A DNA stretch of 41,698 nt, taken from NCBI GenBank assembly GCA_964487475.1, contig CAZAPM010000007.1:1-41698 (forward strand), in the 5' to 3' direction. A model generated the notes under the pieces. That model was not told the origin of the DNA. It searched no databases and was given only the letters and a program-made list of their open reading frames with translations. The DNA is from an uncultured Planctomycetales bacterium. Lineage in GTDB: Bacteria; Omnitrophota; Gorgyraeia; Gygaellales; Profunditerraquicolaceae. A program made the position numbers and the translations under genes. How positions within the stretch are numbered: position 1 is the stretch's first letter; each line of letters starts with the position of its first letter. This document shows positions 1 to 32,449 of this stretch, piece by piece.

Positions 1-157
1 GGGACGCCCTTAAGGGGGACACCCCTTGATTGAAATCAGAGGATTACATGAGTTTATCGAGTGGTTTTATTGTTTTTTTGGGAATAGCAACTGTCTATTA
101 ACAGAATTTGTGCAAAGGGGTGTCCCCTCCAGGGGCGTCCCCTTTAGGGGCGTCCCT
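1..157. repeat. Inverted-arm repeat element, copy A (left arm truncated by the window edge)
   Basis: Left arm 1-26 (GGGACGCCCTTAAGGGGGACACCCCT). Right arm 116-157 (AGGGGTGTCCCCTCCAGGGGCGTCCCCTTTAGGGGCGTCCCT). AT-rich core 27-115 is 89 bp. Arms match those at 25549-25721. Confidence 0.9.
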
Positions 158-24397: not shown

Positions 24398-24961
24398 ATG
24401 AACTTCGCCAATAAGATCTCCACGTTCCGGATACTGACCGTTCCTCTGTTCATCGCCACGTTGATCTATTATGTGCCGGGGAAGGAGCACCTGCGGTATT
24501 TGGCGTTGGGGATATTCATCCTGGCGGTGATCTCGGACGCGCTGGACGGCTACATCGCGCGCAAGTCGAAGATGCAGTCGGAGGCGGGGATGATCCTCGA
24601 TCCTTTGGGGGATAAGCTCCTGCTGATGAGCGCGTTCGTCTGCCTTTCCTTCGATAAGTTCCCGCTGCATTTCCCCCTGGGCGTGGTGCTGACCGTGATC
24701 AGCCGGGACGTGCTGATCCTTCTCGGGACGATCGTCATTTTCATCGTCAAACAGGACCTGGACATCTCGCCGACGCGGTGGGGGAAGCTGACCACCACCT
24801 TCCAGATGTCCGCGGCGATCGCCGTGCTGCTGCAGTGGACGCAGGGTGCTCCGGTGTTGTGGTGGAGCGCGGTGTTCTTTACCGTCATTTCGGGCGTGGA
24901 TTACGTGATGCGGGGGTTCAAAAAACTCTATGCTGTGGATATTCGCCGGAATACTCATTAG
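24398..24961 (+). CDS. pgsA: CDP-alcohol phosphatidyltransferase (PgsA-like)
   Basis: DALDGYIARK...GMILDPLGDK signature, WGKLTT. Confidence 0.85.
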   Translation: MNFANKISTFRILTVPLFIATLIYYVPGKEHLRYLALGIFILAVISDALDGYIARKSKMQSEAGMILDPLGDKLLLMSAFVCLSFDKFPLHFPLGVVLTVISRDVLILLGTIVIFIVKQDLDISPTRWGKLTTTFQMSAAIAVLLQWTQGAPVLWWSAVFFTVISGVDYVMRGFKKLYAVDIRRNTH

Positions 24962-25562
24962 TTATCTGCTCGGGGCGATCCCGACGGCGTATCTTTTCGG
25001 ACGCCTGCTCAAGGGGATCGATATCCGTGCGCACGGCTCGGGGAACGTGGGCGCGACCAATGCGCTGCGCGTGCTGGGCAAGGGGCCGGGGATCGCGGTG
25101 CTGCTGCTGGACGTGCTCAAGGGCGCGGTGGCGGTGGCGGTGATCGGTCCGATGGCCTCCGCGAGGATGCCTTCTTTCCCGCAGGACGTGTTGCTGGTGG
25201 TGTGCGGGGTGGTGGCGATATGCGGTCACAACTGGACGGTATTCCTGCAGTTCAAGGGGGGCAAGGGGGTGGCGACGTCCCTGGGGGTGCTGATCGGACT
25301 GGCGTTTCGCATCCCCGGAATGCCGCTGGTGATCCTGTGCGTGGTGGCGACGTGGGGCGTGGTTTTCCTGGCCAGCCGTTTTGTTTCCCTCGGATCGATC
25401 ATTGCGGCGGCAGCCCTTCCTATATATATCGCGTTGTTCGTGCAGTCGAAAGTGATCTTAGGCGCCGGGATCCTTCTGGCCCTGTTCGTGGTATTCCGGC
25501 ATCATGCCAACATCTCCCGACTTCTTCAAGGCAAAGAACCCCGCATTCAGGGACGCTCCTAA
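24930..25562 (+). CDS. plsY: Glycerol-3-phosphate acyltransferase
   Basis: YLLGAIP, GSGNVGATNALR, DVLKG, GHN...FKGGKGVAT, RHHANISRL..G.E. Confidence 0.95.
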   Translation: MLWIFAGILISYLLGAIPTAYLFGRLLKGIDIRAHGSGNVGATNALRVLGKGPGIAVLLLDVLKGAVAVAVIGPMASARMPSFPQDVLLVVCGVVAICGHNWTVFLQFKGGKGVATSLGVLIGLAFRIPGMPLVILCVVATWGVVFLASRFVSLGSIIAAAALPIYIALFVQSKVILGAGILLALFVVFRHHANISRLLQGKEPRIQGRS

Positions 25563-25721
25563 AGGGGACGCCCCCAAAGGGGACACCCCTCTTCCTGTTT
25601 TGAGCCAATAAAAAGTTTTATTTCTCATTTCCTGAAAAAATTTCCTCATTTTCACTCCTTATTCAGTTAAATTAGGCTCAGGGGTGTCCCTTTCAGGGGC
25701 GTCCCCTTTAGGAGCGTCCCT
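25549..25721. repeat. Inverted-arm repeat element, copy B (173 bp)
   Basis: 42-bp arms at 25549-25590 and 25680-25721 are reverse complements at 39/42 positions. Each arm holds three GGGACRCYCC units at a 15-bp period. AT-rich core 25591-25679 is 89 bp. Confidence 0.92.
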
Positions 25722-25756
25722 AAAGCAAACGCTTTCGAAAAAACCTCGTTTTACTC

Positions 25757-25785
25757 TTGAATGCCAATGAGTTACGAGACATACT
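25757..25785 (+). promoter_or_regulatory. Putative sigma70 promoter overlapped by a dyad
   Basis: TTGAAT-N17-CATACT. Imperfect dyad CTCGT..ACTC-TTG / CAA-GAGT..ACGAG at 25745-25778. Confidence 0.5.
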
Positions 25786-25790
25786 TTATC

Positions 25791-25869
25791 AAGCAAGACC
25801 CACCAGCCAGCAGTGAAGTGGGGCTGACGGGTTGCCGGATGATCATTAGATACGGCAACCCGTTTTTTT
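25791..25869 (+). promoter_or_regulatory. Candidate attenuator / riboswitch leader with intrinsic terminator
   Basis: 11-bp stem ACGGGTTGCCG 25827-37 / CGGCAACCCGT 25853-63, with a T run 25863-69. Upstream GCAAGACCC 25793-801 can pair with the 5' strand of this stem instead. Confidence 0.65.
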
Positions 25870-25885
25870 AAACCCTGAGGTTAAA

Positions 25886-26221
25886 ATGCGCGATCTGGTA
25901 TTCAAAAACCTGACTTCTGTCGAAAAACGGCGCAAGGTGATTGCCAGCAGCGAAGTGCTCGATAACAACGGCATTCACAGTGTGATCAACCGCCATTTTA
26001 TGTATATGGTCAGGGAAGTGGCGTGCGGTACGGAACTCCCTAAGCCCGAACCATATGTGCATGTGATCAAGGACCGCAATACCAAGGACCAGCGCGAAAG
26101 ATTTTTTTGCAAAATAAAAGGCGGGGTGTATGTGATGCACGAGGAAAAACTTTACCTGGTGAATTACATGCATACGCTGCGCATTCAGCTCACCGCAGCG
26201 ACGATGGGGGCGCAGGGGTAG
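25886..26221 (+). CDS. Hypothetical protein, 111 aa
   Basis: ATG with GAGG RBS, own promoter and terminator, natural amino-acid composition. No family recognised. Confidence 0.75.
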   Translation: MRDLVFKNLTSVEKRRKVIASSEVLDNNGIHSVINRHFMYMVREVACGTELPKPEPYVHVIKDRNTKDQRERFFCKIKGGVYVMHEEKLYLVNYMHTLRIQLTAATMGAQG

Positions 26222-32374: not shown

Positions 32375-32449
32375 GTAGGGACGGTTCTCGCTCGTGAGGA
32401 GAACTGTCCCCTTAGGGGACAGTTTTAACCGTAAATCAGAACCGTCCCT
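32375..32449. repeat. REP-like four-arm palindromic element (GTAG-tagged)
   Basis: GTAGGGACGGTTCTC..GAGAACTGTCCCCT-T-AGGGGACAGTTTT..AGAACCGTCCCT. Arm 1 (32377-88) is the perfect reverse complement of arm 4 (32438-49). Arms 2/3 form a perfect 11-bp palindrome. Confidence 0.8.

Follow-up and report, generated by a model that had tools for sequence, protein, structure and literature searches.

The element at the 3′ end of plsY in the window, meaning the whole 41,698-nucleotide stretch of DNA that was analyzed, is a head-to-head pair of the end repeats of a transposase and likely a non-autonomous derivative spread in trans by that enzyme, which is encoded on another contig (C8) of the same genome. 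By kind it is a non-autonomous, REPIN-like dimer of the terminal inverted repeats (TIRs) of a TIRtron, which makes it a variant of an established type. The sequence-only reading had proposed it as the best candidate for an undescribed system, but a modal length combined with a variable spacer has been published for REPINs and REP dimers, and TIR dimers have been published beside tyrosine transposases (PMC3733652). The basic kind of element is thus already known.

Two copies are present in the window, one at each of the places listed here together with the host genes around the plsY copy.

1..26, + strand: left arm of the second copy, two units visible, the arm being cut by the contig start
27..115, no strand: AT-rich core of the second copy, 89 bp, with the inward motif at both ends
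116..157, − strand: right arm of the second copy, three units, ending just upstream of cobT
24930..25562, + strand: plsY host gene, 3′ end occupied by the element, scoring over the TIGR00023 cut-off
25549..25590, + strand: left arm (terminal inverted repeat), three units with a 15-bp period
25591..25679, no strand: AT-rich core, 89 bp, 30% G+C
25597..25610, + strand: left copy of the inward subterminal motif, approximately RWWTTRA-nnn-AWWA, positions 8 to 21 from the arm
25660..25673, − strand: right copy of the inward subterminal motif
25680..25721, − strand: right arm, three units, inverted
25886..26221, + strand: conserved downstream host ORF of 111 aa, present in 54 of 60 family genomes

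The left arm at plsY has two outer units of the form GGGACGCYCC and an inner unit, GGGGACACCCC, and it supplies the last three codons of plsY together with the TAA stop (25560-25562). The right arm is complementary to the left one at 39 of 42 bases. Three units per arm, as had been proposed, were present in the plsY copy but not in the arm at 1-26, where two are visible at the contig start. Arm-to-arm pairing of the whole plsY element gave −57.7 kcal/mol. The units had been read as mini-hairpins; single arms, however, folded no better than shuffled sequences (z of −1.3 and −1.1) and what was borne out was the pairing of the arms with each other, a combination which fits TIRs better than REP hairpins. 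Core folding relative to shuffles gave z values of −2.0 and, for the second copy, +0.6. The inner arm edges are indeed 89 bp apart at both 25549-25721 and 1-157, and the reported ungapped core identity of 36/89 with one core reversed was exact (31/89 unreversed). This identity is slightly greater than chance, shuffles giving 25.5 ± 4.1 with 94 of 10,000 reaching 36. An Rfam search produced no match at the element, while a promoter search detected 0 sites at 25500-25900 and 1 weak site at 1-250. Terminator-like sites numbered 4 against 0.5 expected and were mostly the arm sequence itself. No RNA data set was listed as containing the element. In one public contig (run X1), 22 bp of the right arm are tandemly duplicated at window position 25689, which is either a strain variant or an assembly artefact.

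A census of the genome (1.87 Mb in 36 contigs, 94.6% complete) detected 46 arms at 30 loci, of which 18 had two units, 23 had three and 5 had four. Adjacent-unit pairs occurred 79 times, whereas none appeared in any of three order-4 Markov simulations of 900 kb. With one mismatch allowed, single units in the window numbered 32 for an expected 27, which is no enrichment; the enrichment is limited to unit arrays. The two window copies are not the only ones, and 13 inward-facing pairs were counted. The 15 inward pairs listed comprise nine with long cores, four with short cores, one that spans part of folC and was left out of the element count, and one that holds the transposase. Measured between inner edges, the long cores are 89, 89, 90, 90, 90, 62, 101, 111 and 135 bp and the short ones 0, 5, 11 and 11 bp, so that cores of 89 to 90 bp make up five of the nine long-core pairs. 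With one homologous pair counted once, 4 of 8 fell within 2 bp of each other (P of ∼0.002 under a uniform 60- to 140-bp null that was chosen post hoc). The element is genuine, and chance does not account for the 89/89 spacing, but the length is not fixed: there is one favoured value per genome and no universal length. The two arms of a copy showed no sign of concerted evolution (p of 0.36, 13 pairs).

The sequence-only reading had suggested that a RAYT or IS200-like HUH gene flanked by the same arms might be encoded elsewhere. Such a gene was found.

C8:96041-96631, outside the window: HUH/Y1 tyrosine transposase of 196 aa, bracketed by three-unit arms

These arms are identical in type and inward orientation to those of the element. 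The protein has intact catalytic motifs, HFH at 60-62 and YIERNP at 120-125 (Y-x-x-x-NP), and H60, H62, Y120, N124 and P125 were invariant across 12 aligned proteins. It scored over the cut-off for Pfam Y1_Tnp and, at 63.9 bits, below the cut-off of 80 for NCBIfam REP_Tyr_transpos (NF047646). No domain other than Y1_Tnp, and no helix-turn-helix (HTH), was detected at E values up to 1 in any of four proteins searched. As a single-sequence fold was poor (pLDDT of 45), an alignment-based fold was utilized instead, giving a predicted model with a pLDDT of 87. The best PDB match of this model was 4ER8, the E. coli TnpA-REP protein (E of 6e-9; 14% identity), followed by the ISDra2 and IS608 transposases. 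The model also contains a helical 50-aa extension, which could correspond to the extension of subgroup 2.1.1.

Association of the arms with this type of enzyme was surveyed in 200 family genomes, of which 25 hold a close clade of the C8 transposase (42 to 50% identity). Including C8, 23 of 26 clade loci had an arm upstream and 23 of 26 an arm downstream, using a pattern that was tuned on the clade loci and had 0 matches in 129,779 bp of control loci. The loci with missing arms were two truncated loci, one with a reversed arm and variants beyond the pattern. These counts and the C8 gene support the proposal that the element is non-autonomous and served by an HUH enzyme encoded elsewhere. At least five arms were present in 16 of 25 genomes with the clade versus 10 of 175 without it, the genomes being incomplete and kin not independent. 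In those 10 genomes no full-length clade member was found, although one has a truncated member, and 9 of the 25 clade-bearing genomes have fewer than five arms. In all five genomes checked, the dispersed arms carried the variant found at the ends of that genome's own transposase. An exact two-unit pattern had 0 matches in 60 relatives; relatives use arm variants. A metagenome contig retrieved by DNA pattern alone (L054) contained arms around another such transposase. In another organism (L052:1001-1393), arms bracket 345 bp with a 70-aa Cys-rich ORF, possibly representing cargo or two insertions.

Insertion of the element into plsY was indicated by comparison with syntenic relatives. Arm-free sites, which the sequence-only reading had advised looking for, exist at the 3′ end of plsY: 18 of 18 syntenic relatives lacked the arm, a nineteenth locus being cut inside plsY. 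The conserved ORF at 25886-26221, which lies outside the element and matches no NCBIfam family, served as the synteny anchor, and the right arm directly adjoins the conserved box upstream of this next gene. Across the genome, 9 of 45 arms supplied the terminating TAG of open frames that span 100 codons or more, some of these frames being perhaps spurious. Comparison of five genes with orthologs from five genomes detected in-frame arm inserts in PriA (five orthologs), FolC (five orthologs; two inserts), an AddB-like protein (two), an Fe-S protein (two) and a dUTPase-like protein (one). The reading frame is kept because the unit period is 15 bp. No empty allele, excision joint or circle indicative of movement was detected in public data, which consisted of contigs only. 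Six of 45 arms, one of them a likely spurious case, end 1 to 12 bases before a start codon (G000 C6:26678, C8:98778, C12:57796 and C10:69638, and window position 157 were among these sites); judged by sequence, the AGGAG or AGGGG of the arm could act as a ribosome-binding site. Capture of cargo between distant arms was judged unlikely, as the intervening genes appear to include ordinary operon genes such as lrp and a leuB/icd-like gene.

The cores were then compared by reading 17 half-cores inward from the arm, one module-bearing half being omitted. A common motif was observed at positions 8 to 21, with 7.2 bits of information versus 2.2 ± 0.3 in shuffles (0 of 5,000). The short AATA patch shared between the window cores is due to this conserved end motif, which occurs at both ends of most cores; the description of the core as sequence-variable, therefore, holds for the middles but not for the ends. 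The middle 43 bp of the plsY core was unrelated to those of the remaining 89- to 90-bp cores. Among the five cores of this length, the middles were unrelated in nine of 10 pairwise comparisons (lowest p of 0.05 in 18 comparisons), and one core pair was homologous without gaps (70/92). Four unrelated core middles, nevertheless, agree in length within 1 bp. Core self-complementarity was low (z of ≤1.5). Two candidate sources of the cores were rejected: captured spacers, for which neither the genome nor phages offered a source and plasmid matches were short and at chance level, and remnants of a transposase leader, whose match was not significant (126 of 2,000 shuffles). The C8 gene is flanked inward by a different module and, hence, the cores are not simple deletions of this gene.

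Relatives had favoured core lengths of their own. These were measured between pattern ends, a scale on which the value for this genome is 95 to 96.

G085: core length of 12, 9 of 10 pairs
G202: core length of 56, 6 of 6 pairs
G171: core length of 63, 3 of 3 pairs
G029: core length of 114, 4 of 6 pairs
G016: core length of 145 to 146, 4 of 5 pairs

Within relatives, the cores form a gap-free divergence series from 89% down to 36% identity, with 32 to 50 of 56 positions identical in G202, 56 to 61 of 114 in G029 and 52 to 67 of 145 in G016. The cores of this genome matched the core motif of the relatives marginally (86 of 2,000 shuffles). As far as the sequences indicate, core length is a property of the lineage, core sequence goes back to founder copies and the motifs at the ends remain in register. 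The claim of length conserved without sequence was, thus, partly upheld, there being a favoured length within a genome but also cores that are plainly homologous and have conserved ends. The retention of one length across unrelated middles implies a constraint, but lengths vary both within and between genomes.

A mechanism can be proposed by analogy with TnpA-REP and the IS200/IS605 transposases. The C8 enzyme would bind arms on transiently single-stranded DNA, with both arms pairing on the single strand and looping out the core, and its nicks would fall at the outer T-A ends or close to them. The element would then be joined into AT-rich sites, and the copies that survive such joining may be mostly those at the ends of genes or inserted in frame within loops. 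The favoured length of each genome would be that of the founder copy, inherited by its descendants; at the core ends a degenerate AT-rich motif would be retained, its register relative to the arms unchanged, and the middle would drift by substitution. Changes in core length are likely to be selected against because they would shift this register during mobilization.

Three other explanations were weighed against spread by the C8 enzyme. One is that the host now keeps the pairs as protein-bound bends or regulatory sites, with an IHF-like protein on the AT-rich core and a spacing set by helical register, however they were originally spread. The agreement in length of the four unrelated middles would suit such a role, and the long cores of relatives contain an inward palindrome, TAAC-N20-GTTA-like, with 16.4 bits versus 3.1 ± 0.4. 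Matches to the IHF consensus with at most one mismatch were present in 15 of 27 relatives' cores versus 5.3 expected and, after removal of near-duplicates, in 10 of 21 versus 4.3 expected (5 of 1,000 shuffles), in a test that was post hoc, the motif having already been seen. The sole HU/IHF gene of the genome, on contig C10, is closer to the IHF model (89 bits) than to the HU model (55 bits), and IHF sites within miniature inverted-repeat elements (MITEs) have been published (Delihas 2008, PMC2229807). The cores of this genome, however, exhibited no IHF enrichment (3 of 9 versus 2.0 expected); a protein-bound loop, as raised in the sequence-only reading, would be suggested by the cores of relatives and not by those of this genome. 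Moreover, favoured lengths vary from 12 to 146 between genomes, the sites are lineage-specific and pairs with 0- to 11-bp cores exist. We regard maintenance as host sites as improbable; IHF-like binding is compatible with spread by the C8 enzyme, in a helper role.

Even less probable is an ordinary MITE that duplicates TA and depends on an IS630/Tc1-type DDE transposase for its movement, with the Y1 gene merely lying inside one copy. In this genome 13 of 14 pairs have T-A at the outer end on the right and 9 of 14 have it on the left, the arm ends reading YTAG-GGAC, and AT-rich MITEs that end in TA and form in-frame fusions have been described (Delihas 2008, PMC2229807). There was, however, no DDE_3 match in the 94.6% complete genome, the G085 copies have no T-A at their ends, and the arms bracket the Y1 clade at 23 of 26 loci per side and co-vary with it. 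Site-specific inversion or cassette recombination, of an attC- or dRS3-like type in which the core would invert or be swapped, can be given hardly any weight. The 42-bp inverted arms are near-perfect and half-cores look mixed between copies (a weak signal, z of 2.4 to 3.9 in 72 comparisons), but both tyrosine recombinases are located ∼9 and ∼11 kb from the nearest arm, the copies are dispersed rather than arrayed, and the cores have no source in the genome, phages or plasmids. The one public contig spanning the plsY element had an identical core in an unchanged orientation with no strand-switch joint listed, and the inversion cassette raised in the sequence-only reading, therefore, found no support.

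Comparison with published systems places the element closest to the TIRtrons, whose Y1 transposases (TIRYTs) are flanked by terminal inverted repeats and not by GTAG hairpins (Di Nocera et al. 2013, PMC3733652). The inner unit GGGGACAC fits the published TIR motif GGGGWSAS, present in the majority of published TIRYT cases, but many arm variants of relatives depart from it. Shared features also include a moderate copy number and repeats occurring as singles, dimers and groups, here 46 arms and 13 pairs. The arms differ in being 2 to 4 tandem 15-bp units and the 196-aa protein in that no HTH was detected. Neither dimers that have a subterminal AT motif and a core length specific to the genome nor a genome-by-genome matching of arms to enzymes is described in the passages compared. 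The TnpA-Y1 subclass 2.1 holds most TIRYTs (Quentin et al. 2018, PMC6006769), and the C8-type enzyme probably belongs to this subclass, which is equal to RAYT group 1 (PMC5581495). The HTH-bearing TIRYTs of subclass 2.1 have a C-terminal HTH (Bac_DnaA_C, HTH_23 or HTH_28) that was not detected in the C8 protein.

In REPINs the spacings are modal and every spacer differs in sequence from the others (Bertels and Rainey 2011, PMC3337134), and the element resembles REPINs in its two inverted conserved ends, overall length of ∼100 to 170 bp, modal spacings and a spacer that differs per copy. A single-copy cognate transposase per repeat family and several families per genome are further shared features (bioRxiv 10.1101/2021.07.10.451892). 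Unlike REPINs, the arms lack a strong GTAG-footed hairpin and the core does not extend the hairpin; there are tens rather than hundreds of copies, several of them inserted in coding sequence, and the enzyme resembles RAYT group 1, which is reported with only weakly repeated flanks (Bertels et al. 2017, PMC5581495). The element, thus, works like a REPIN, lacks the REP hairpin and has the features of a TIRtron except for the HTH. The E. coli TnpA-REP/BIME system provides the best structural match of the C8 protein, with an HUH motif, a catalytic Tyr and mosaic repeat modules (Messing et al. 2012, PMC3479197; 4ER8), but differs in sequence and in having a GTAG guide. Insertion in frame in conserved genes, with ends giving stops, is shared with intragenic REPs, Rickettsia RPEs and Correia elements (PMC3733652; PMC2229807). 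The AT-rich interior may bind IHF, as in IHF-site-bearing MITEs such as Correia or in RIB-like repeats, but Correia-type MITEs have DDE transposases and TA duplications whereas the enzyme here is HUH/Y1 (PMC2229807). Nothing on BIMEs being bound by IHF was found in the portion of PMC6907758 covered. Integron attC sites and Neisseria dRS3 differ in being arrayed and linked to a tyrosine recombinase. No account of this arm family was found in the literature searched on Omnitrophota repeats and insertion sequences; the figures and supplements of papers on the known systems may already list such arms.

TIRYT proteins are one of the largest HUH transposase groups, yet a little-studied kind, and no TIRYT biochemistry was found in the literature searched. 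This family offers matched enzyme-arm pairs per genome, dated insertions and core lengths that form a natural series (12, 56, 63, 90, 114 and 145 across genomes), through which the rules of recognition and spacing are directly testable. For annotation, the arms explain odd GTPLK, GVPFR and GASPL peptide inserts and altered C termini in Omnitrophota proteins. A broader and rather doubtful proposal is that TIRYT-type HUH enzymes actively breed their own symmetric miniature elements across Omnitrophota and need an IHF-like host protein to bend the degenerate AT-rich core for synapsis of the arms. Such breeding would contrast with the view of TIRYT enzymes as largely domesticated, and an IHF-bent synapse would explain how length is kept without sequence and would give a single-strand enzyme a TIR-bounded, bend-assisted way of transposing.

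Several further features were observed near plsY and in other parts of the genome. Between the element and the downstream ORF (window 25723-25885), a palindromic AAA-CGCTTTC-type box, which we take to resemble a LacI/CcpA operator, precedes a −35/−10 pair in all 19 relatives as judged by eye. In ∼16 of 19 relatives the same interval has a leader containing CCCCACCAGCC together with a strong stem; it had no match in an Rfam search and is a candidate unnamed regulatory RNA. At L114 (G000:C13:40200-43350), a single open frame comprises EF-G, a long coiled-coil at the N terminus and a Pro/Glu-rich linker, and an arm is located at the junction.

A second TIR family is represented in the window by a compact pair at 32378-32448, of the GGGACGGTTCT ... 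AGAAGTGTCCC type. This family has 33 arms genome-wide and brackets a second Y1 transposase, at G000:C16:9589-10068, whose score exceeds the NCBIfam RAYT cut-off. Two more distant C8 homologues (L085 and L087) have arms of this second type, and hybrids of both arm families were present at C9:71513. A third hairpin module, GCAGAAAG..GCACCGGCCAC..GGCCGGGTGC, was detected at L113 (G000:C8:95885-96030) and ∼10 further sites; it is attached inside or outside arms, the C8 transposase having it at each end, and FolC contains two translated copies.
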